A stretch of 64,000 nucleotides of DNA from Octopus sinensis (lineage: Eukaryota): NCBI RefSeq assembly GCF_006345805.1, contig NC_043006.1, forward strand, positions 100,006,001 to 100,070,000, read 5' to 3'. The translations under genes and the position numbers were made by a program. Below are positions 3,682 through 59,765 of the stretch, piece after piece. Position 1 is the stretch's first letter; the number at the start of each line of letters is the position of its first letter. Below the pieces are notes generated by a model. It was not told the origin of the DNA. It was given only the letters and a program-made list of their open reading frames with translations, and did not search any database.

Positions 3682-4297
3682 GGCGGTGCCCCAGCATGGC
3701 CACAGCTCATTAGCTGAAACTGGAAAAATCGAAATCAAAATCAAAATATATATATATATATATATATATATTGAATCAATCAGCGGTGTGTTTAATATAT
3801 ATCAAGAGAAATTAATTATACTCACGGGTCTGGTTTTAGAACTAATCTCGGCTATAGTTATGTTGCAGTTTTTTTTTTAAATTAAAAATTCTGATGCACA
3901 CTCTACTATCTTTTTACTCATTCGATTTTCGCGCTTCCTTTCTCCCCTCCTCCCCCTCCTGTTTTTTTCTCAATTATTCTATCTCCAATATTATCCTCTC
4001 CCTTCACGCTGCTCTGAATGTCATTCTCTCCCTCGCTTTTCCTCCCTTGATCACGTGGCTCCCACTTGCCCATCGGCCATCTTCTAACTTGTGTTTCTTT
4101 ATTTCACTCCATTGTAGCTGGCTCAATGAAGACGTGTTTTTGTCTATCTCCTGTCCAAGCTTGATTTACACGTTTTGTTTTCTATTTGTGGCTTTCGTTG
4201 TTCGAAAAAATAGTTCTTAATGTACTCGTATACCGTATATTTTGTTGTACACGTTTCCTGACGTCCTGTGCTTGCATATGCATATATATATATATAA

Positions 4298-4393
4298 TAA
4301 CAAAGGGTAAAATTAATTAATTAAGAAGTAATCAATAAATTTCACCAAGTAGAATTCGGTATGAAAAAAGGACCGTTACAGGGTAAATTTTAG

Positions 4394-8016: not shown

Positions 8017-9861
<1,845 letters not shown>

Positions 9862-13246: not shown

Positions 13247-13440
13247 GGATAAATAACTAAATGGGATATGAAAGAGTAGAAATCAATAGAATGATGCTTT
13301 GAAAATACAAATGTGACACTGAAAGAATACAAAGGTGATGACCTGGACACTTGAATAGACATATTCATGTAAGCGGAGACAACTGAATAATATACATTAT
13401 TTACAATGGACGGATATTTGTCCTCATCTTGTTTGTTGTT

Positions 13441-13486
13441 ACCACAACATTTCGGCTGATATACTCTCCAGCCTTCATCAGGTGCC
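13441..13486 (-). ncRNA. Minimal hammerhead ribozyme motif in pLTR
   Basis: CAC-CTGATGA-A-GGCTG-gagagtatat-CAGCC-GAAAT-GTT-GTG. Confidence 0.7.
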
Positions 13487-13580
13487 CTGATAGAATTTTG
13501 AACCTGGTTTCTCATTCCTAAGGTATTTGTTGCTGATATTATTATTATTATTAATATCATTATTATTCATTTGAATGAAT

Positions 13581-13650
13581 TGCCTTGATTTGAACTCGCA
13601 ATCTTGGGGTTAGTAGCCTGCACTCTTAACCATTACGCTATGCTCGTGGG
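13581..13650 (-). other. tRNA-like Pol III head inside pLTR
   Basis: TAGCGTAATGG (A box), GG-CTACTAA-CC anticodon-like arm, GAGTTCAAATC (B box). Confidence 0.7.
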
Positions 13651-15265
13651 CAATTACAGAGTAAATTTTAGGGCTTATAAACTTAATATTTTTGTATTCC
13701 TCTTTAATACCAGTTCACATATTCTACTCCTATCTGTACTTTGTCTGCTTAAGAGGTTACTGAGTGTTAGGAAATGTGCTGTCTCTTTTAGTTTTCGTAT
13801 TTTCCATTGGTGTTCTATGTCTATTATTTTAACTTCATCTCACGGGTAAGGTGGTCTCCGCTTATACATACATTACCTTCTACAACTTACTTTTAAAAAT
13901 CTCCTTGTGTCGCAGCTTTACGATGTTCATCTACCCTTATTTAGAGTGGGCGACATGTTTCGTCTTTTATAACCTACTACAATAGCATGGGATGGAGTAC
14001 ACGCAGTCTTTGGTTATATACTCTTTTATTGGTGGTTTTTCACGAAGGAGATATTATCCAAGTGGTGTATTCTTCCTGCATACCGTACCGATGTTATATG
14101 GACCGCATATCATTTGTATCTTTTCCGAGAGGCCTTTCACATGGGGTAGACAGACTGCGGTCAGTTTATGGGTTTCATTTTCTCTCCTCTTCCTAATTGG
14201 AGTGGATAGTATATTTTGGGATAGTTGTTCTTTAATAGATTGTTACTTAGCTTGATCATTTCTTCGTGGTATGTGTCAGGATTGCTACTTATATTCTTTG
14301 TTCGATGTTTTAGGCACTGAGCAATCCCTCTCTTTACATTGTATGGGTGGTGGGAATTGAAGTTGAAGTATTGTCCAGTGACGTTTGGCTTGCGGTATAC
14401 GGATGCCATGAACCCGTGATTAGTGCGTGTTATTAATACATCCAGGAATGCTAGCTGATTGTCTTTTCCTTTTCCATTGTAAAGTGTATGGAAGGCTTTA
14501 TTCACTTTACATGATCTAGCAGTACTTGGACATGTTCTTGGTGTGGCCAGAGTATAAAAGTATCATCAACGTATCGAAGCCATAGGATTGGATTTATTAG
14601 TGTTGATCCCAAAGCCAAATTCTCAACGTATTCCCTGTATATATTGGCTATTAATGTGTGAAAATGGTGAACCCATAGCTAAACCCTCATCTTGTGGATA
14701 TATATCAGTGTCTACTCTGAAGTAGGTCAACATTCCCATCAGGTTTCCTATTGTTATAATAGTGAGATCTTTTAGATAGGTGTCCGTCACTAGTTTTTCT
14801 TGAATCACTGATAGTGCTTCATCAGTTGGGACTTTGGTGATCAGACATAACATTTAAACTTACCATCTGGTTGAATGCAATGGGGGTAACCTTGATCAAT
14901 TCTGTGAAGTGGGAAGAATTCTTCATATATGATGTTGACTTACCTGCTAATGGGCTGATTATATCCACAAGGAAGCGGCTCAGTAGATGACATGCCGAAC
15001 CTCTACCACTCACGATAGGCCTTAATAGAATACCATGTGTATGGAAAAGTGGAAACCACCTTATCCTTTGGGACGAAGTTCAAATAAGAGACAGATGACA
15101 TCACAGGAAAATACGAAAACTAAAAGAGGCAGCACATTTGCTAGGACACAATAATCACATAAGCAGACCCAGTGCAGATATAAGTAGAATATGGGAACCA
15201 TTATTAAGGTAGGATACAAAAATATTAGGTTTATAAACCTTAAAATTCACTCTGTAATTGCCCAC

Positions 15266-15324
15266 AGGCATATAGTGTAACGGTTAAGAGAGCGGGCTAC
15301 TAACCCCAAGATTGGGAGTTCAAG

Positions 15325-15388
<64 letters not shown>

Positions 15389-15497
15389 TAATAATATCAA
15401 CAAAAAAACCTTAGGAATGAAAACCCAGGGTTTGGTTCAAAATCCTACTAGGACACCTGATGGAGGCTGGAGAGTAAATCAGTCGAAACGTTGTGGT
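15266..15497 (+). ncRNA. tRNA-like head + (AAT)n + hammerhead module, inverted pLTR copy
   Basis: TAGTGTAACGG...GGGCTACTAACCC...GAGTTCAAGA; ACAC-CTGATGG-AGGCTG...CAGTC-GAAAC-GTT-GTG (core A9 mutated). Confidence 0.65.
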
Positions 15498-16858
15498 AAC
15501 AACAAACAAGATGGGGACTCATGTCAAAAATATAGAACAGACCTGCATAATATGTTTGGGCATATGAAATTTGAGGGAAATCTTATATATAAGTGTTCTT
15601 CGTGTATGTTCACCCTTGCATCTATATATCTGCATGAATATACACAGTAAGCATTATTTATATGCACGCATGCTCATATATATAAACGAACACGCGCGTA
15701 TATATATTTCAATGCACAACATTGTACTTACACATGCTTATATATGTATGAATATTATTCATCTGGATAGCATGTATTTGCATTCATAAACATTGCATGC
15801 ATATTAGTATATAAATGTACGCGTTGTACACTTGAAACGCATAAGTGTTTGTGTATATATTTTTGTGTATAAGCAGTGGAGAGGTAACGTGAAGTACACG
15901 CGATGACGTGAATCAGTGTCTGAGGTTTGAGAAGACAATGAGGCTTATTAATGCAAAGGTATTCATTTATGGATGCATGATACGTAGGCTGTATTCAACT
16001 TAAAGAAAAATATTTATAAATAAAGCAAAAGGGAGATAACAAATCTGAAACGTAGACAAGGCTGTAGTGGAAGCCTCAGAAAGGGATGACCAACAGAACT
16101 GAATTAATTAACTTATCGGCTTGAAATCTATTTGACGCAATTCCGTTCTGCTTTCATCCATTTTTTATTCAACACGGTGTATTTGATGCAAACAATTTCG
16201 TAATTCAATGTTTTTTTTTTTCTCTTCTCAAATAAACACGACTAAAATATTGGATTGTATTTTCTTCCTCGGCGACGAATTATATACATGAAAATGTTTT
16301 GAACTCGGTTATTTTTAAGAGTTCATTCTGGAGGAGGATTCTATTTCTAAAACACTTTTCTTCAAAAATTGCTGATTTCGATGCCGTTGATTTTGATCTT
16401 GAAAATCTAGAGATTAACGGCGACATTTGAGAGTCGTAGATATTCCAGAGGATTGACCCACTGTGAAGAGTGTTTTCAAATGCAAAAAAAAAATTATAGT
16501 GAGACAGATATTATGTAGATACAGGGAAAGGGAAATATAGCCTGCCTAATAAGCTTAGGTTGAGCTAGTGTGCATTCAGTTGGCCAATGGGATCAAGAAG
16601 TGAATTTGTGACAGTTATAAAACAAGTAGAGTGACTGGACATCGCGTTTAAATGTTAGAGTTTGAGTAGCTCCATGTATAACACGAGATTTTTTTTTATC
16701 GATGTAGCACTAATGTTTGTAAGCGTTTAACACTTCGATCACAGATGTAGAAAATAGAATTTTTTTACGGGGACATCGCCTGATACCTGTTACTGATATT
16801 GAAGTTATATCAGCAAGAACGGAAGTGGTATACTTTTCATGTCATCCTTAATTAAAAA

Positions 16859-21949: not shown

Positions 21950-23410
21950 TACTTTCAACTTCCAGACATGTTTTGCCGGACTGGTCTTTGTTCTATTTTA
22001 GGGGTACCAGAAGGAATTTCTATGGGAATAAAAACTTGTTTTGAAAGAATTTTCTGAAGCCCCTGTTTATGTTTTATATTTATGTGAGCTTTCTATTTGT
22101 ACTTTGGCCTGAGACACAATCCCTTTCTCCAAACCTTTTCCTTCCAACCGACAAGAGGTCTCATCTTTGAAATTGTAATTCTTCGGATTAGAATCTGTAC
22201 TGTGGTTATTTGTAATTATTCTTGTGTCGGCAAATGAAAGAGGCGAAGATTTTACAAGAATAACTAATCTTCACCTTTCTTCTGTTAAATATTCTATAAA
22301 ACTTATGGTTAAGTTGAAAATGTTTAGAGATTAATTTTAAGAATTCCCCACCTACATTAGTTTATACGGCCATATTAAACCCAGTGTTGAACCACAAAAC
22401 CCTCCTAGTTCTACTTCTACGCGTGATATTACTGCTAGCATTAACTTGGTTGTGCAGGGTTTTCTCAGAGAATCCACTATTCCTTAATGCGTTATTTAAT
22501 AGGGTGCATCATTTTGAAATGCTGTCTCATCCGAAGAAATTGATGATATTCGTCTACCTACATTACTAATTAGGTTCCGAATAATAGCTGGTCGATGAGT
22601 AAATTATTTGCTAATATAAGACATCCTTTCATTAGACATACGGTAAGGTTTGAATCTATCTAACTATCTAACTGTAAATCTAAATTTATATCTAAGAAAT
22701 CTACACTTTTAAGACTACTATCTATCGTAATCCATAACTGTACGGCCGTCATCCCTATATAATCCTGTGTCTATAAACGGGAATTCTAGATATAGAATAT
22801 GCAAAATATAAGCTCCTACGAGCACTCATAACTAAGCCCTGTCGCATGCCCCCATTGGTACATCGAACAGAGAATCGTCACTCTTTTTGACCCGGGTAGA
22901 ATCCTCGAAAAAAAAAATAAGGGATTTCCTCACATGTATGATATTGATTTCCGAGTCATCGATACTGACATACTGCTTGGTGAAATCTAATGCTTTTAGA
23001 AGAAAAGGCCTGGATATTGACGGGTAATATCAAACTGTGTAAATTTGCTCTAATGCTTATGGCCAATCCCTTGAAACCTATCTATTACTGACTTACTGTT
23101 TTTTATCCAAATCCATAAATTTAATTTGCTATTTAACTTAGATAAAATACGATCTAAAATATATTTGCTAATAATATCTATTTCAGTTTTAGCCGGATTA
23201 ATGAATCTACATTTAGGGCTTCTATTAAAATTAGATTTATGGTCTCTTAGGGTAATAAAAGGGTGGTGAGTTGGGAGATATTCTATCCTATCACTAATTT
23301 TAAGATTGTTAGCTATTCTTCTTGCCTCCGAATTCACCGTTTGGTATAAATTTGTATTTCCTTTTTTGTATGTATCTGTGATGTTATCCAATGGGTAGTA
23401 AGGGTCCATC
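21950..23410 (-). pseudogene. Penelope-like (Naiad-type) RT + start of GIY-YIG endonuclease, disrupted
   Basis: FITLRDHKSNF..PKCRFINPAK, FDVPMGA, GLYRDDG, LWFN..F...TNVG..FL.LI.KHF...IFNR..VKISYSC, SCRLEGKGL...HVWKLK. Confidence 0.9.
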
Positions 23411-24857
23411 TCTTTCAGTTGTTTCTTCTTCCTACTTGTGTAGAGTCGCTCAAACTTTCCAAAAAAGGAATGGATTACACCAGAGTAAGCACATAAATGT
23501 AAAACAAGGTGGAAAAAAGGGCACTCATATACCAGAGGTAGAGTAATATGCTTTATTTAAATGAAGCAGAAATATAGCAAAAACCTTTGAAAATGGTGTT
23601 GTTTAATTGGTCCTTTCAACTAACGGTCATAAGCATGCAATGAACAAAATACACTCAGAATAAATTCATCCTACTGTAAAATCACAAAAAACCTGAAATC
23701 GAAGGTGAATAATCGTAAACGAAATATAAGTCAATTTATACATTAAAATTAAAACTTTTCACGCTGTATTGCATATCTTTTCAGCAGTATATACGCATAC
23801 TAGACAATCTATAATAGATATATATATATATATACACCAAAATACACAGATGCATGTACATAGTAATATACACATATAGACATCTAGATGCAAGACATAA
23901 TTATATACACAAATACACATATACATATATACACGCATAAATGCACGCGCACAAAACACACTTGAATACATATACAGGTCAATTATTACGGATGAGAGAA
24001 ATGGGAAGTATCCCTTAAGCAGCGGGAGGAGGGAGAGAAAAAAAGAAATTGAAAAAGAAACAGAGACAGAAACGTAAAAACTAGCAATAAAAAGAGAAAA
24101 AAGAGAAAAAGGAAAGAAAAATGGAGTGTGTTAAGGACGCTAGCAATACATAAGTATATATTAGCATACAAATACACATATGTAATTACGTATATAAATA
24201 TACATAAATATGTACATAAATACATATTCAGAAAAGAATAAGTGTATACGCTTATACACATGTAGTATGTACGTAAATATAAGCATACACGTATACGTAC
24301 ACACATACACAGACGCACACTAAACATACATATGCATGCTTACAATAGACACGTAAACATAAAAACACATCTAGATCCCAACGTATATATACAAACGACT
24401 TTTAAACAAATTGCTCAGTGTATATAAAAATAAAAATCGGATAAAAAATATTTTCAACATCCAGCATCATGCATAGAATTATCTATGAATATAACAATTA
24501 AATAGGTTTGTAAAAATACAATAATATAAAAATAAATAATAAAAGCTTAAACTTGAAAATAATATATATAACAGTCGAAAGTTTTCTTAAAGAACACATC
24601 GAAATACATTCAATGTCGTTGCGATGCGAAACAACCGTACACTACAAAACACGAATTCAACAGTGGCATTGTAAACCATTTCAAGATTCAAAAAAATATA
24701 TAATATCCATATGGTATTTTGTCGGCTGACATTTTAAATTGTGTTCCGTGCCTGCAGGAATTTAGGAGTTCGCGTCCTTGATTCAACGCGCAATTGTCCT
24801 GGAATAAAGAATTTCGCATACGATTATTTACCATAAGTATTTGGAATCTGTTCTTCG

Positions 24858-26430: not shown

Positions 26431-26509
26431 TATATATATATATATAATATATATATATTATATATATATATATATATTATATATATATATTATAATATAT
26501 ATATATAAT

Positions 26510-29500
26510 ATAATCAAAATAAGCAACAAGAATAACTTCGGTAATTTGGTACGATCGTTTCGCACAACATCATTTTATTAAATGTTGTAAGTATTACAAC
26601 AGTTTTAAAATGCTGAGCACTCATCAGCCATTAATAGAGGTTTTCCATTAATACATAATTTTCATATCAAGTGATAACATTATAGAGAAGGTAGATATAT
26701 AGACAAAGATGTGGATTTAAAATTTAAGAACATTTGAGGTAGTGGAACTTAACAACTGACTGACTAAAATTAATTTGCTCCGAACTACTGTAAGATTCTG
26801 AGAGGAATGTACAAGTGAAAGGATACGACAAAGATTTTCTATTTATAGAAATAGGGGTGAAAGAGATGTCAAAGTTCAACATAAAGAAATTTATGTAGAA
26901 AGAAAAGGATTGTCACATTACAATGCCAATTACTACTATTTGGTAAACAGATTTGGCATTAGGAAAACTAGGTCAATGTCAAATGGTTATAATGACACTC
27001 ATAGAGATTGCAGAGATTTTATAAAACTAAGGAGAAATTATAGACCTAAAATTTATTCAATTTGGAGAAAAGTCTATCACTTATTATGAGTAGTTATAAC
27101 ACTTATTAAATGGGGAAAAAATCTTATTAGTCAAGTGAATATATTAGGGGTCCAAAATATATACTAGGAAAAATGGAAGAGGAGAAATCAAAGAAGAAAG
27201 GTATTCGTAGGTTTAGTAGAAGGTGATTTAATAATATGAAGAGAGGTAATTTAGAAGAGTAAATTATTCAGATTTCATAGATAGTAAGTTGTTATTAATG
27301 AATTAAAATATAGGATCTGTTGGAAATAATATTTACTAACCGCGGAGAAAAGTTAATTAGATAGGTAAAAATATCTTTGGTTAATTATATATTAAGAAAT
27401 GGAAGTGAGATAATCAAGGTGAAACGAATAGTTTCCTTAGGGACATAGGATTTATACTATTTAGTATTGGAGAATATTAGAAAAAGAATAATTTAATTCT
27501 GAGTTTGCAATGTAGTTTTTTTTTATTTATCTATGTGTGTTGAATTAAAAGCCAGTATGGTATATTTATTCTTATTTTGGACCAGACAGTGGCTAGATAC
27601 TAATAATAATAATGGTAATAATTATAATAATAATAATAATAGAAATAATGATGATGATAATAATAATAACAGTAATAACAACATTAATACAAATAGTGAT
27701 AATAACAACATCAATAATATAGGTAGTATAGATAAAAGTATAGTAGGTGATGAAAATGAGGATGGATTAATAACTAGTAACCCCAGTTTGCATAACAATG
27801 TAACTACTATTAGAGAAAATAACACTAATACTAATAACAACTCAAATAACAGTAATGAAAAGGAACTGTCCTTAAATAATACGAGTATGGAAATTATCCC
27901 CCCCAGTGGTAATTGTAGGATCAGTTCGAAATGTCCGGTATCTGGCCGTTGTCTGGTCCAAAACGTGATTTATAAACGTACGATAATAACTTCAAACAAC
28001 AACTATCTTTATTTCAGTTGTTCGGTAGATTAAAAAAAAACTTTAAACAATCATTTTTCCTCCTTTAGGCTCAAACACAAAGCAGGTTGCACAACATTGT
28101 CTAGTTAAATTTGGGAACTAAAAACAAATAATATAGAATTCAACCTGAAATGGGATACAGTAACAAAAGCACGGCCTTATAAAAATAGTAGGAATGGTTG
28201 TCAACTTTGCTGTATAGAAACATATGAAATTTTAAAACATCAGAATAATACAAATCTGTTAAATAACCGTTCGAAGCTAGGAGGATCTTGTATACATCGT
28301 ACAACTCGTACGTTTAAATATTTTAAATAATGATATTGTGAATATTCCTAAATTTTTCAAATTTTTTATTTCTTTATAACCAAATAAGAACGAATATACC
28401 ATACCAGTTTTTAATTCAACATGCATACATTACTAAAAAACTACATTGCAAACTCAGAATTAAATTATTCTTTTTCTAATATTCTCCAATACTAAATAGT
28501 ATAAATCCTATGTCCCTAAGGAAACTATTCGGTTCACCTTGATTATCTCACTTCCATTTCTTAATATATAATTAACCAAATATATTTTTACCTAACTAAT
28601 TAACCTATCTCCGCGGGTAGTAAATATTATTTCCAACAGATCCTATATTTTAATTCATTAATAACAACTTACTATCTATGAAATCTGAATAATTTACTCT
28701 TCTAAATTACCTCTCCTCATATTATTAAATCACCTTCTACTAAATCTACGAATACCTTTCTTCTTTAATTTCTTCTCTTTCATTTTACCTAGTATATATT
28801 TTGAACCCCTAATATATTCATTTGATTAATAAAATGTTTCCCTATTTAATAAGTATTATGTCTACTCATAATAAGTAATATACTTTCTCTAAATTGAATA
28901 AATTTTAGATCTATAATTTCTCCTTAGTTTTATAAAATCTCTGCATTCTCTATGAGTGTCATTATAACCATTTGACATTGGCCTAATTTTCCTAATGCCA
29001 AATCTGTTTACCAAATAGTAGTAATTGGCATTGTAATGTGACAATCCTTTTCTTTCTACATAAATTTCTTTATGTTGAACTTTGACATCTCTTTCACCCC
29101 TATTTCTATAAATAGAAAATCTTTGTCGTATCCTTTCACTTGTACATTCCTCTCAGAATCTTACAGTAGTTCGGAGCAAATTAATTTTAGTCAGTCAGTT
29201 GTTAAGTTCCACTACCTCAAATGTTCTTAAAATTTAAATCCACATCTTTGTCTATATATCTACCTTCTCTATAAAGTTATCACTTGATATGAAAATTATG
29301 TATTAATGGAAAACCTCTATTAATGGCTGATGAGTGCTCAGCATTTTAAAACAGTTGTAATACATACAACATTTAATAAAATGATGTAGCATGAAACGAT
29401 CGTACCAAATTACCGAAGTTTTTCTTGGTGCTTATTTTGATTATAATCACCCGATGAATTTATATGGATAACACCATACGGAATTCTGGTGCATCTAACT

Positions 29501-43469: not shown

Positions 43470-43580
43470 ATTTTACATTATTTACATTATTTACATTCGA
43501 CGGATATTTGTCCTCATCTTGTTTGTTGTTAACACAACGTTTCGGCTGACATACCCTCCAGCCTTCTTCAGGTGTCTTGC
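43470..43580 (-). ncRNA. pLTR fragment with intact minimal hammerhead
   Basis: GACAC-CTGAAGA-A-GGCTG-gagggtatgt-CAGCC-GAAAC-GTT-GTGTT. Confidence 0.8.
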
Positions 43581-50137: not shown

Positions 50138-51427
50138 CGAGGGACATTCAATAAGTAATGCCTCTGACCTACTTGCAATTGTTTGATCTAGCTGGAATTT
50201 TGCATGTGCAATTGCGTATATCTCCAAGGATTAAGGGGAAAATCACAGCTCTGAACTAATTGTGGTTTCGGATTTACAGGTGTTTGAACTGAGTCAAGTG
50301 TGAAATGGAGCCTGTTGAGTGTCGAGCAGTGATCCGGTTTTTGTATTTGAAAGGAGGCACACCACGGGAGACTTTTATGAAATGAAAGTAACTTATGGTG
50401 ATGATGCCCCATCATATGACCTTGTAAAACGCTGGCATCGTGAATTCAAAAATGGTCGGAACTCTGTGGAAACAGCTCCCAGATCTCGTCGCTCCCCTTC
50501 TTCCATTGATGAGGTATCTGTCCGTCAAGTTGAGGCTGCCATTTTGGAAGATCGACGCATAACTATTCGCCAAATAGCCCATGAGGTCAAGATTAGTACC
50601 GGGTCTGTGGAAACTATCATTCATGACAATTTGCATATGAAAAAGGTGTCTGCCAGATGGATTCCCAGGTTGCTCACATCTTTCCAGAAGCAAGAACGCG
50701 TCGAGTGCTCGAGGATGAATTTGGAGATATGCCAAGAAGATGAGTCAACTTTTTTCAAAAGACTAATTACACAGGATGAAACCTAGGTCCATCACTATGA
50801 TCCAGAGACCAAAGCCCAGTCAATGCAGTGGAAGCACCGTGACTCACCTCCTCCAAAGAAGGCAAGGGTGCAGCGCTCCGCTGGCAAGGTCATGCTCACA
50901 GTCTTCTGGGACCAGGACGGAGTAGTGATGATATATTTCCTGGCAACGGGTACCACAATTTTAGGAGCCTATTATGCTTCACTTTTGAGGAAATTAAGAG
51001 AAGCTATCAAAATTAAGAGGCGGGACAAGATCAGCAAAGGCATCCTCATCCTGCAGGACAACGCTCCGGTCCACAACTCGCTGTCGCCAGATCAGAAGCA
51101 CAGGCGTGCGGCTATGAACTCCTCCACCATCAGCCTACTCTCCTGACCTTGCACCCTCTGATTTTCACCTCTTCCCAGCCATGAAGCTGTTTTTGAAAGG
51201 AAAGTCTTTTCCAAATGATGCAGTCTTGATTTCTGAAGTCACGTCGTGGATGGAGGACCAAGCTGGGGTCTTCTACAAAAACGGTCTCCAGAGCTGCATC
51301 ACACGATGAGAGAAATGCGTAACTCTGGCTGGTTCCTAGGTAGAAAAAGACTAATAACTGTGCCAAGTTTCGTTGCTCTACTGCTATGGGAAGTGGGTCA
51401 GGGGCATTACTTATTGAACGCCCCTCG
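50138..51427 (+). mobile_element. Near full-length mariner (DD34D) transposon, 1290 bp, inactivated transposase ~50305-51355
   Basis: TIRs CGAGGGACATTCAATAAGTAATGCCTCTGACC / GGTCAGGGGCATTACTTATTGAACGCCCCTCG, TA on both sides; ARWIPRLLT, TQDET*, QDNAP, YSPDLAPSDFHLF; stops and frameshifts. Confidence 0.96.
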
Positions 51428-57790: not shown

Positions 57791-59329
57791 TGCTTTCACT
57801 ACATTTACACGTTCTCACCAGTGTATGCACTCAAATAGCTGCAGAGTGTTCAGCAGGGTTATCATGTCTTTGATAATCTGTTGGATTTTCTACCTTGTTT
57901 AATCCAAAACAACCATTCCAGTCACTGAACTTCTTTCTTACAGAATATTTCGTTATTTAAAGATATTGTCGTCTTCCCCTCTCCTAGAACTACCACAAGC
58001 TTCCATCTCCTTTACTTTCGGATTGCTACTAACTCTATTCTATGAGGTTCATTGCCTGGCTTTTTGCCTAACTCTTCGAAGCGACTCTAAGATCAAGCAG
58101 CTCAAATTTGGTACCGAAAGTAACGAAGACGTTCTGTCTCTATTCTTCAGTCAGGCAACTCCCGATTTGTGTATAAATGAGCCTTCCACAAGCTTGTATT
58201 TTCGACTATACATATGAATAGAAAAAAGAACTGTTTTGATAATATTTTTAAACCTCCCGTGCCTTGGCCATTTTGACATAGTTATTTGTCTTTCTATAAA
58301 GCCCAAACACCTTTCACATATTTCTATAATGCTATGGCGTCTGATAGTCTGACCACTTAGATGATATAATAGAGACGAGGCCATATACTCTCATGATGTT
58401 CATTTTGTTGTTTCTTGAGGCTAAAATGTGCTGCGATATTGGAACGGCGATGGATTTAGTAATGGTGATAATGATATTCATTTCCGCAGCTTCAATTCGT
58501 CGAATCTTTGCTGAAATATCTGTACGTCCCCTTAAGACAGTAGTTCTGCAAAAATAATTATTGGATCGTTTCATTCCCCCAAAAAGTCTTTAAGTCGTGC
58601 CCCAGGATGGCTGCAGTCTAATGAGTGAAAGATGTAAACGGGAAAAGGGAAAGATATGTATGCTTATGTACGAATGTAAGAATTATTTATATCATAGAAA
58701 ACTCAGTGAAATATCATCGACATGGTTACTACCAAGAAGTTGAAGAATAAAAGCGAATAAATTTAATAATCTAATAATATAAAATATATATTATTGATGT
58801 ATTGAATTTGTTTCTGCTTCCAGAGAAGGTAATGCATTCATCTTGTGGCAATTGGGACTAATTCGAATTTGGGAGAGGAGTAGAATCTCAACAATGAAGA
58901 ATTCTAAAATAATTCTTTATTTCCTTTATCAACAGAATTCTTAATTGCTGCAATTATTTCTCCTTCTGATTTGAAGTTGAGTCGTGTCGCTATCAGGCAA
59001 TTTCCCTGGAAGCAGAAATTATTTCAATAAATCCAGAGCTTATATTGTATTTAATTTATTCGATTGGATTCGTCTGTGTTCAAAAACGTAACTCAGTTGT
59101 TTTCCGTAGCATATTCTCGTGTGTGTCTGTGTGCATGTGTATTTGCATGTGTGTGTACGTGCGTATATCTGTATATATCTATCCTTCTATCTATCTATCT
59201 ATCTCTCTATCTCTCTATCTGTCTATCTATCTATCTGTGTGTGCGTGTGAATGTATGTGTATGCATATATTGTAATCGTTAATGACGGATTTTTATTACG
59301 TCCACTCTGGTATAGCAGAGAAGGTCTAT

Positions 59330-59765
59330 TCTATATTTTTGAGATGAGGAGTTCTGTAAATGATTGAAATTATTTACATTGGACGGATATGTGTCCACAT
59401 CTTGTTTGTTGTTACCACATTGTTTCGGCTGATTTACTTTCATCAGGTGTCCTCGTAGAACTTTGAACCCAACCCTGGGTTCTCATTCCTAAGGTATTTT
59501 TTGCTGATGTTATTATGCACTCGTGCATATAGCGTAATTGTGTAGAGCACAGGCTACTAACTCCAAGATTGCGAGTTCAATTTCAGGCAGTGCCTTGAAT
59601 AAACAATCTTAATAATATCAGAAAAAATACCTTAGGAATGAGAATTCACAGTTGTGTTCGAAATTGTACCAGGATACCTGATGAAGGCTGGTGAGTGAAT
59701 CAGCCGAAACGTTGTGGTAACAGCAAACAAGATGAAGAAACATATCCGTCCAATGTAAATAATGT
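59330..59765 (+). mobile_element. Palindromic ORF-less PLE derivative: antisense HHR arm + central tRNA-like head + sense HHR arm
   Basis: 59368-59515 is the reverse complement of ~59610-59765; tRNA-like 59523-59595; CTGATGA 59678, GAAAC-GTT 59706-59713. Confidence 0.85.

Follow-up and report, generated by a model that had tools for sequence, protein, structure and literature searches.

The usual view is that Pol II transcribes autonomous retrotransposons and Pol III transcribes SINEs. The closest described relatives of the element analysed here, a PLE of Octopus sinensis, are PAc (Poseidon_Ac) of the green anole (PMC11167929) and Penelope of D. virilis (PMC2377424), which, according to excerpts of these reports, have the same single ORF encoding an RT followed by a GIY-YIG-type endonuclease, likewise carry partial-tandem and inverted pLTRs and a minimal hammerhead overlapping the ORF start, and show two 3′ end sites 30–40 nt apart, insertion without ribozyme cleavage and a promoter in the pLTR (PMC11167929; PMC2377424). 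Where the spacer of Penelope is described as holding an intron and a Pol II promoter that lacks a TATA box (PMC2377424), that of the octopus PLE holds a tRNA-derived A/B-box module and (AAT)n, and the octopus element is set apart from the excerpted accounts of both by the lack of TTTT on its coding strand and by a strong pile-up of 5′ ends at this module. The ribozyme itself is no different from known minimal hammerheads as these are outlined in partial accounts: the core motifs, the long helix II with an extra preceding base, the helix I of 4–5 bp, the palindromic positions 15.1–16.1, the lack of helix III and the occurrence mostly as dispersed single copies are all shared, and those accounts mention no tRNA-like promoter such as the putative one of the octopus PLE.

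In the Schistosoma repeats SM-alpha and Sj-alpha, the available text describes the same order, a Pol III promoter and then a hammerhead, with the promoter of one unit driving the next; these are non-coding tandem repeats whose canonical, active ribozyme frees monomers (PMC6765202), whereas the octopus module lies inside a coding autonomous element and its inserted RNA is uncleaved. TRIMp3 elements (Cassandra, Helenus, Ajax; Kojima 2024, PMC10886601) have a Pol III promoter comparable to the one proposed here, derived from a small RNA and placed in the terminal repeat, with the boxes conserved and the RNA structure lost, but are characterised in the excerpted text as non-autonomous LTR elements of 0.3–1.3 kb with PBS and PPT; membership is ruled out for the octopus PLE, which is coding and has pseudo-LTRs. 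Animal non-LTR retrozymes (PMC7229834; PMC7761336; bioRxiv 10.64898/2026.07.22.740005) are, in the portions available, likewise short hammerhead units related to pLTRs and mobilised by PLEs; they form head-to-tail arrays that give rise to circular RNAs and are said to be promoterless (PMC7229834; PMC7761336), and the words ‘tRNA’ and ‘promoter’ do not occur in the preprint. The short octopus copies are single or inverted, not head-to-tail tandems, and do not belong to this group. The literature searched held no description of such a PLE architecture. The original prediction, made from the letters of the locus alone, knew of no description of the arrangement, which has to be narrowed: Schistosoma repeats already combine a Pol III promoter with a hammerhead behind it (PMC6765202), and small-RNA promoters are known from TRIM terminal repeats (PMC10886601), as far as excerpts of those reports go; the novel part is the coding, autonomous host of the putative promoter–hammerhead module.

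In the 64,000-nt stretch analysed (contig NC_043006.1; hereafter the window), the element is a dead Penelope/Poseidon-type PLE with an inverted pLTR. Its ORF remnant (13675..15055, minus strand; stop codon 13675-13677), RT and then GIY-YIG-type endonuclease, is 5′-truncated and frameshifted, and matches the full-length relative P0007 in five tblastn segments at 38–57% identity. The core of a palindromic hairpin marks the junction of ORF and head (13641..13652; −7 to +5, extending to −14/+10 in the family). On the same strand follow a tRNA-derived head (13576..13645; A box 13630-13640, anticodon-like loop 13610-13616, B box 13587-13595) with a 2-nt deletion close to its start, an (AAT)n spacer of variable length (13535..13575), the ATG with which, in tandems, the following unit's ORF begins (13513..13515), a minimal type I hammerhead (13441..13485; core 13481-13475 and 13453-13446; architecture as in PMC4209133) with no stable helix III and a predicted cleavage site between 13446 and 13445, and the AC-rich 3′ end of the insertion (13392..13440), which stops at the first of two clustered end sites. 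The inverted, 5′-truncated copy on the plus strand (15039..15540) comprises ~230 nt of the ORF 3′ end, a head cut inside its B box (15266-15324), (AAT)n (15325-15397), the ATG (15417-15419), a mutated hammerhead (15453-15497) with the core change A9>G, and the tail to 15540. In both pLTR copies, the minus-strand 3′ pLTR and the inverted plus-strand one, head, (AAT)n and hammerhead share one orientation, as predicted. The window's four heads are completed by a short minus-strand copy that runs from the hairpin and head onward and has lost most of its B box and ribozyme (9190..9530; head at ~9455-9523), and by an inverted pair of short copies (59322..59765), one with ribozyme and tail (59322-59516, minus) and one with head and ribozyme (59523-59765, plus; head 59523-59595). 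A head-less, 5′-truncated copy with an intact ribozyme core lies at 43480..43576 (minus). The window copies are decayed: the catalytic core is kept only at 13441-13485, at 59675-59717 and in the head-less copy.

RVT_1 was found on a family copy (L110, E 3e-11), and the endonuclease could be aligned with the part of P0105 that Pfam identifies as GIY-YIG (E 4e-12); the Pfam GIY-YIG model itself did not match the family endonuclease, where the motif reads CVY-YKG. Two Cys and two His stand in the C-terminal region at the positions expected for a CCHH motif, and continuous frames, both in natural copies and in the column majority (the first of which lacked ~35 endonuclease codons through a deletion in the reference copy and was rebuilt on a second reference), give a single ORF with the RT followed by the C-terminal endonuclease. 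Neptune and Nematis PLEs are described, in the text available, as carrying an extra CX2-5CxxC Zn-finger in the RT–EN linker (PMC8557442); inspection of the linker in the natural L136 frame revealed none. A partial-tandem pLTR was seen in L132, and inverted arms in the window and at many other loci. ORF layout, linker and pLTR form point to Penelope/Poseidon as the probable assignment, the RT tree being one without named reference elements. The closest relatives, P0001–P0010, are 51–68% identical, and a metagenome scan and viral contigs returned no DNA of these. When the genome was searched for other canonical PLE families, 48 of the 50 loci examined were the same head-bearing family. Subfamilies A (known from 5 long copies) and B differ by 34 synonymous versus 23 non-synonymous codon changes, an excess indicating that both were once active.

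The head is not a functional tRNA gene. ARAGORN at default settings reported no tRNA in the window, the Rfam matches listed for the whole-window scan and for the region 13390..15545 included neither a tRNA nor a hammerhead and were otherwise microsatellite-driven miRNA noise only, and a better genomic copy matched the Rfam tRNA model over its full length at 20.6 bits, under the 29-bit cut-off. The column profile and fold show unpaired positions in every one of the T, D and anticodon stems, so that the cloverleaf is broken. A profile made from the genome's own tRNA genes reached at least 8 bits in 41 of 61 family segments. The majority A and B boxes match the consensus TRGYnnAnnnG and GWTCRAnnC at tRNA spacing, with at most one box mismatch in total in 31 of the 61 decayed family segments and in none of their shuffles, and subfamilies A and B differ in the boxes at three positions, all of them purine-degenerate. 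Among dispersed copies box decay (4.8% vs 5.9%) shows no selection beyond neutral decay, as expected of dead copies. No single parent tRNA could be assigned, the best being Gln-CTG (47/76 columns) and Arg-TCT (49/77) in a comparison sample of 12 anticodon classes and only 8 amino acids.

In two 30-locus sets, the ORF-anchored copies with room for a head have it after the end of the ORF in 24/24 and 21/24 cases. Tandem copies are arranged as head-(AAT)n-ATG-hammerhead-ORF, with the head ~50–150 nt before the ATG, and so the head occupies the site expected of a promoter. An exact head 18-mer occurs 5,780 times in the genome and an exact ribozyme 16-mer 5,896 times, as against 0 for reversed controls, which puts the arrangement far beyond chance. 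A PLE ribozyme region lies downstream of 85 of 97 heads, and the other 12 share no common body; candidate direct repeats of at least 8 nt, found by a crude search in ~8 of 21 non-inverted short copies, flank the whole PLE-type insertion. The head therefore belongs, as had been proposed, to the autonomous element itself; a separate tRNA-derived SINE is rejected, no body of its own having been found for one.

The ORF starts at a codon downstream of (AAT)n and upstream of the ribozyme, a point missed in the original prediction, and the ribozyme is thus inside the coding frame; in L200 a continuous natural frame runs from the ATG through the ribozyme into the RT N-terminus and is 47% identical to P0007. 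A column profile of 328 copies shows a conserved core, helices I and II and palindromic helix III positions. Helices I and II form in the predicted fold of the best natural copy, and in both subfamily-A window copies a hairpin downstream competes with helix I. One reading, that of the original prediction, makes the mobile unit a Pol III RNA of 190–300 nt whose 3′ end is cut by the hammerhead; a variant of it takes the head for an independent SINE. The absence of TTTT between head and ribozyme, correctly noted for all four head-bearing window copies and extending to 41 of 50 genomic copies, would suit it, as would an intact ribozyme core in 168 of 327 copies. The 3′ ends do not: 87 of 92 ribozyme-anchored copies continue beyond the predicted cleavage site, most of them ending ~50 or ~90 nt past it at two tail ends (37/92 reach the second), a pattern that a partial account of PAc gives as typical of PLE internal priming (PMC11167929). 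An RNA from head to cut would moreover lack the tail where the RT primes, the short unit was not seen in head-to-tail arrays, and the count of heads with a ribozyme downstream, given above, leaves no SINE body. We regard this reading as barely credible and, for inserted copies, largely refuted; a cleaved small RNA could arise as a by-product. For self-cleavage as the source of the 5′ end of long templates there is a hint only, 5 of 49 long copies starting at −2..+15 of the cut site (P 0.12, not significant). The ribozyme is probably silent in most templates, cleavage needing a dimer or an element protein.

The 5′ ends are concentrated at the head. They fall within −10..+10 of its first base in 51 of 97 unselected head copies, a rate 11.7 times that at −30..−660 (P 7e-24), and the pile-up has a sharp upstream edge at −8, which lies 15 nt ahead of the A box; an excerpted account places the Alu start 12 bp before its A box (PMC4333407). 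Most head-bearing copies (72/97) begin at or after −22 and carry no ORF, short head-to-tail copies of ~250–400 nt forming a large population, and ~26% of short-run copies pass the head. With the consensus boxes, this population is what a short Pol III RNA would be expected to leave, in line with the predicted SINE-like unit within an autonomous PLE though not with its cleaved 3′ end. Among 12 copies that carry the N-terminal part of the ORF and extend to the head, 5 stop at −14..+4, 3 inside the head and 4 pass it; L206 and L207 stop at the head start after at least 2.5 kb of continuous element.

Of all 30-nt hairpins in a scan of 900 nt, the strongest lies right at the head start, so that RT stalling or fold-back of the cDNA could also produce the pile-up. 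The head might then be a passenger, an old tRNA or SINE head caught in the 3′ UTR, and the hairpin, by stopping the RT or letting the cDNA fold back or anneal, would account for the inverted copies as well. One pair of this hairpin, −13/+9, is compensatory between subfamilies (C-G 83, T-A 16, T-G 8, C-A 5; 126 copies), the modal 5′ end, −7, is where the inner stem is completed, and the 59 copies ending at −22..+10 include 7 perfect snap-back and 27 other inversions. The remaining 25, with no detected inversion, have ends spread evenly from −8 to +6, whereas a stall should put ends mostly 3′ of the stem; a passenger also fits poorly with boxes still at consensus beside decayed stems, and leaves the absence of TTTT and the parallel module of the distant PLE L233 (below) unexplained. 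We consider this, the main rival of the promoter reading favoured below, unlikely. Still less probable, and indeed very unlikely, is that the head mimics a tRNA and is cleaved by RNase P or Z, a cut that would free element RNA from host transcripts and set its 5′ end: 7 of 97 copies do start exactly at +1 and the acceptor stem is partly pairable, but 28 copies start at −10..−1, farther upstream than RNase P would cut, only 3/5 of the T stem is paired and the anticodon stem is short, and RNase Z would part the head from the body.

The reading that we favour, at a little under an even chance, is that the head acts as a Pol III-type promoter starting both the short SINE-like RNAs and the full-length ones. 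It is favoured by the boxes, kept at consensus and at tRNA spacing while the cloverleaf decayed, by the pile-up of 5′ ends at the first bases of the head, long ORF copies included, and by the absence of TTTT from the ORF together with the parallel module in L233; the location of the Penelope promoter in the pLTR, as given in excerpts, also counts for it (PMC2377424). Against it, the PLE promoters characterised so far are described in the text available as Pol II-like (PMC2377424; PMC8557442), and an excerpted source holds Pol III to be poorly processive and assumes Pol II for the autonomous partners of TRIMp3 (PMC10886601). It is weakened further by the hairpin at the head start, by the copies that pass the head (~26%; 4/12), by the modest TTTT result, by RNA-seq without discrete starts or ends, and by the five long copies on which subfamily A rests. 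Under the favoured promoter reading, Pol III would start ~8–10 nt upstream of the head. From a 3′ pLTR or short copy, a short RNA would run through the uncleaved ribozyme to the first T-run of the flank; from a tandem master, transcription would continue along an ORF without T4 and on into the head, ribozyme and tail that follow, giving a template longer than one unit. The element RT would then prime internally at the tail, as an excerpted report shows for PAc (PMC11167929), turning short RNAs into SINE-like copies and long RNAs into ORF copies. Translation would have to proceed on an RNA that has no cap, perhaps aided by the A-rich leader, and this is the weakest step. More tentatively, it is possible that an autonomous coding PLE swapped its Pol II promoter for a tRNA-derived Pol III one and lost the terminators of its 2.5-kb ORF, a single promoter yielding the coding template as well as SINE-like short copies by the tens of thousands.

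If true, a coding PLE with a tRNA-derived promoter would blur the divide between Pol II and Pol III transposons, show a route from an autonomous parent to a SINE-like population, and demand translation of an uncapped RNA. Two questions about PLEs, where their RNA starts and whether insertion makes use of the minimal hammerhead, become testable on short natural sequences. Even on weaker readings, a PLE has dispersed thousands of A/B-box cassettes, some of which may wrongly carry SINE annotations.

TTTT is absent from the coding strand of the column majority (807 codons and 117 nt of non-coding sequence), a modest depletion whose P value ranges from 0.005 to 0.09 by null (0.032 by codon permutation, 0.005 by third-position resampling, 0.09 by dinucleotide shuffling). 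GGGG is likewise absent from this strand (2.6 expected), and four non-canonical T-rich words remain in it. L487 and L488 from the genome-wide family search served as controls, and two PLE ORFs of the same genome from outside the family contain 10 and 9 TTTT. In 18 metagenome PLE ORFs, a pool from which L239, L269 and L290 were left out as long ORFs that are not PLE-like, the observed and expected counts were 99 and 76, and one ORF lacked TTTT (L278, which has no head); among 15 distinct spacers from other PLEs, TTTT is present in 12. In three RNA-seq runs from one organism, no pile of starts or ends was seen at the head or the cleavage site; depth was equal in both directions, for libraries of unknown strandedness and a dead family, and its shape mirrors the 3′-heavy abundance of genomic copies.

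L233 is an intact, distant PLE with a tRNA-like unit and (AAT)3 at the same place. The unit scores 9.3 bits, reached by 0 of 2,480 shuffles, and TTTT occurs 77 and 196 nt after the ribozyme core, which disfavours full-length Pol III read-through in this element. These two runs are among the points in favour of a head that serves as a Pol III promoter for short RNAs only (head, ribozyme, tail), a built-in SINE exploiting the enzyme of the element, with the coding mRNA made by read-through or by Pol II acting from the same pLTR. Such a division of labour would also suit the predominance of ORF-less copies starting at or after −22 (72/97), the borderline depletion of TTTT and the Pol II-like nature, in the excerpts available, of all characterised PLE promoters (PMC2377424; PMC8557442). 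It has more difficulty with the 5 of 12 long ORF-bearing copies that also stop at the head start, with the complete absence of TTTT from the unit, and with a spacer that has room for just ~30 nt of further non-coding sequence and lacks a pyrimidine tract, and we judge it unlikely. An A/B-box scan of relatives, run with a positive control, found a tRNA-like module in 1 of 62 segments, the tRNA-like matches at L251 and L295 belonging to flanking elements and not to the PLEs. L233 suggests that tRNA capture at the head site occurred more than once, or that it marks a whole subclade.

Positions 13390-15545 of the window hold a single dead insertion of a Penelope-like element (PLE). Its open reading frame (ORF), 5'-truncated and frameshifted, was recovered on the minus strand (15055-13675) as five tblastn segments against the full-length relative P0007, and is followed on that strand by the tRNA-like head (13645-13576), an (AAT)n run, a minimal hammerhead (13485-13441) and the AC-rich end of the insertion at about 13392. 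A shorter, inverted copy of the PLE 3' end lies at 15039-15540 on the plus strand, and further insertions of the family are found at 9190-9530, 43480-43576 and 59322-59765. The minimal type I hammerhead of the original prediction was borne out in the pseudo-LTR (pLTR), with the standard architecture described in the available part of PMC4209133, and no Pol III terminator (TTTT) separates head from ribozyme in any of the four heads in the window, as had been claimed; two of the four have a damaged B box and ribozyme core.

The head is an integral part of the element. It follows the ORF in all 24 ORF-anchored copies that have the ORF end and room for it (30 loci, window copy included), in 21 of 24 such copies in a second set (30 loci), and is followed by the ribozyme region in 85 of 97 unselected head copies, a sample taken on a single chromosome from the first 100 matches to the head pattern. 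Because the head is tied in this way to both ORF end and ribozyme, it does not behave as an independent SINE; a common body sought among the remaining 12 copies was not found. Of 92 copies anchored on the ribozyme, 40 carry the head no more than 500 nt away; another 33 break off in or past (AAT)n, and the remaining 19 are cut short closer to the ribozyme. In tandem copies, such as the full-length partial tandem L132, about 30 nt separate the ORF stop from the head, after which come (AAT)n, the ATG, the hammerhead, the tail and the ORF, and a natural copy (L200) has a single open frame running from the ATG through the ribozyme into an RT N-terminus 47% identical to P0007, with which it shares the ribozyme-encoded peptide. 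The ORF of the anole element PAc likewise starts in its hammerhead (PMC11167929, partial text), and the promoter of Drosophila Penelope lies within the pLTR, in the same place as the head here (PMC2377424, partial text). The head thus occupies the promoter position. Just 3' of the ATG (window 13495-13512, minus strand) is a small hairpin including a B-box-like word, in which a 6-nt indel between subfamilies keeps both stem and reading frame.

A profile of 256 head copies places the A box at positions 8-18 and the B box at 53-61, with tRNA spacing and with partly unpaired stems; both boxes fit the Pol III consensus quoted in PMC4333407. ARAGORN called no tRNA in the heads at its default threshold and clearly called two when relaxed, the Rfam tRNA score of 20.6 bits fell short of the cut-off (29), and comparison assigned no parent tRNA. 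By sequence, then, the head looks like a promoter and not a tRNA. The three box differences between subfamilies, all A/G at purine-degenerate sites, are weak evidence at n=3.

The 5' ends of copies pile up at the head. Counting from its first base, 51 of the 97 head copies begin within -10..+10 and another 8 within -22..-11, the latter for the most part fold-back arms mimicking upstream sequence; 13 begin within +11..+21 and 25 beyond -30. The rate at the head is 11.7 times that at -30..-660 (P 7e-24). Upstream, the distribution breaks off sharply at -8, which is 15 nt 5' of the A box; Alu transcription starts 12 bp 5' of its A box (PMC4333407). The peak recurs in the ribozyme-anchored set (-10..+10 in 17 of 28 copies reaching +10), and of 12 copies with the ORF N-terminus that reach the head, five stop at -14..+4 (L200, L206, L207, L534 and L546, with L206 and L207 at least 2.5 kb long), three stop inside it and four pass. 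Stalling of RT, or fold-back of cDNA, at a conserved palindrome at the head's start is a real rival explanation, since this junction hairpin is the strongest 30-nt window among 900 nt scanned and has one compensatory pair between subfamilies, and since, among the 59 copies whose 5' end falls at -22..+10, 7 are perfect fold-backs and 27 carry inversions of other kinds; in the remaining 25 no inversion was detected. The upstream flank (window 13638-13659, minus strand; family -14..+10) itself repeats the first 10 nt of the head in inverted orientation, with 2 nt inserted, and may preserve a fold-back junction formed at head capture or be an annealing site of two cDNAs.

Read-through by Pol III is suggested, not proved, by the TTTT content of the unit. 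The column majority has none over 807 codons and 117 nt of spacer, where codon permutation predicts 2.8 (P 0.032) and dinucleotide shuffling 2.2 (P 0.09); third-position resampling, run on a version without about 35 codons, predicts 4.4 (P 0.005). Two other PLE ORFs of the same genome with equal T content have 10 and 9, and 18 metagenome PLE ORFs, after three non-PLE ORFs were left out, have 99 against 76 expected. One of these 18, the head-less L278, likewise has none across 2.1 kb (L278:2104-4247) despite a very T-rich pLTR. GGGG is also missing from the column majority, and four non-canonical T-rich words persist in it.

Scored with a profile derived from tRNA genes of the same genome, 41 of 61 family segments reached the threshold of 8 bits, versus 1 of 62 control segments, many of them redundant. 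The single control match, L233, is an intact 855-aa PLE (P0028) that forms a 2,791-nt tandem. Its stop codon is separated from the ATG-hammerhead by a tRNA-like unit and (AAT)3 (L233:2823-2912), whose 9.3 bits were attained by none of 2,480 shuffled segments. L233 has two TTTT per unit, both shortly 3' of the ribozyme and one within a hairpin loop, and none across the other 2.4 kb of ORF; TTTT is present in 12 of 15 distinct PLE spacers. Its clade is sister to that of the family with weak support (0.41), both within a 25-member clade (support 0.85), and its head bears no more than a loose resemblance to that of the family, which does not establish common descent. An extra hammerhead-like motif lies 5' of the detected one in the L237 spacer (about 4290-4330).

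The original prediction also proposed a mobile short RNA with a self-cleaved 3' end, which finds no support: 87 of the 92 ribozyme-anchored copies run beyond the cut site and 37 reach the second end site, the pattern that priming within an uncleaved RNA should give. Hammerhead cleavage did not set the end of the inserted RNA, and the core is kept in 168 of 327 copies. Five of 49 long copies (L382, L510, L545, L548 and L516) start at -2..+12 of the cut site, a possible, non-significant trace of in vivo cleavage (P 0.12).

Exact genomic matches to a head 18-mer (5,780) and a ribozyme 16-mer (5,896) in the 2.7-Gb genome, versus none for the reversed words, suggest that the family probably numbers tens of thousands of copies. 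It is the dominant canonical PLE family recovered, accounting for 48 of the 50 examined loci that a distant PLE protein retrieved, and long copies have a median identity of 89% to the column majority (108 alignments). Pfam detects its RT domain, its C-terminal domain can be aligned with a region that Pfam labels GIY-YIG, and the linker between RT and endonuclease has no Zn-finger, a combination given for Penelope/Poseidon in the portion of PMC8557442 available. Two subfamilies, A being known from five copies, differ at 69 of 1,472 positions, and their codon differences, 34 synonymous and 23 non-synonymous, indicate that both were active with the head already in place. Other PLE copies of this genome, L487:2744-5069 (minus) and L488:2279-4132 (plus), are about 28% identical to P0007, with open frames of 775 and 618 codons and RVT_1 plus GIY-YIG in L487; neither head nor canonical hammerhead was found 3' of their ORFs.

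RNA-seq from one organism (three 2026 runs and one contig set) covers the element equally in both directions, mainly over the 3' pLTR region, with no starts or ends piled at head or cut site. The pattern is consistent with dead copies being passively read through; a past promoter falls outside such data. On balance Pol III probably made some RNA from the head; that it made the full coding RNA is possible, if somewhat doubtful. Full-text searches of published papers turned up no account of an autonomous PLE with a tRNA-derived promoter; the sequence files that accompany PMC4209133 and PMC8557442 could include the family. The nearest known systems, each from partial text, are Schistosoma repeats with Pol III promoter and hammerhead (PMC6765202), TRIMp3 elements (PMC10886601) and non-LTR retrozymes (PMC7761336, PMC7229834, bioRxiv 10.64898/2026.07.22.740005); the available parts of PMC13282606 and PMC4758252 had nothing further on a head-hammerhead PLE architecture. 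The element is a real variant of a known retrotransposon class, and one that is apparently undescribed.

Elsewhere in the window, long inverted repeats of 562 and 408 nt (26509-27521 and 28435-29445; 96-97%) flank an Asn-rich frame (27503-28033) and together look like a DNA-transposon-type or fold-back element. Fragments at 23050-23556 (minus) and 50319-50786 (plus) resemble, respectively, a further element with reverse transcriptase and a transposase of the mariner type.
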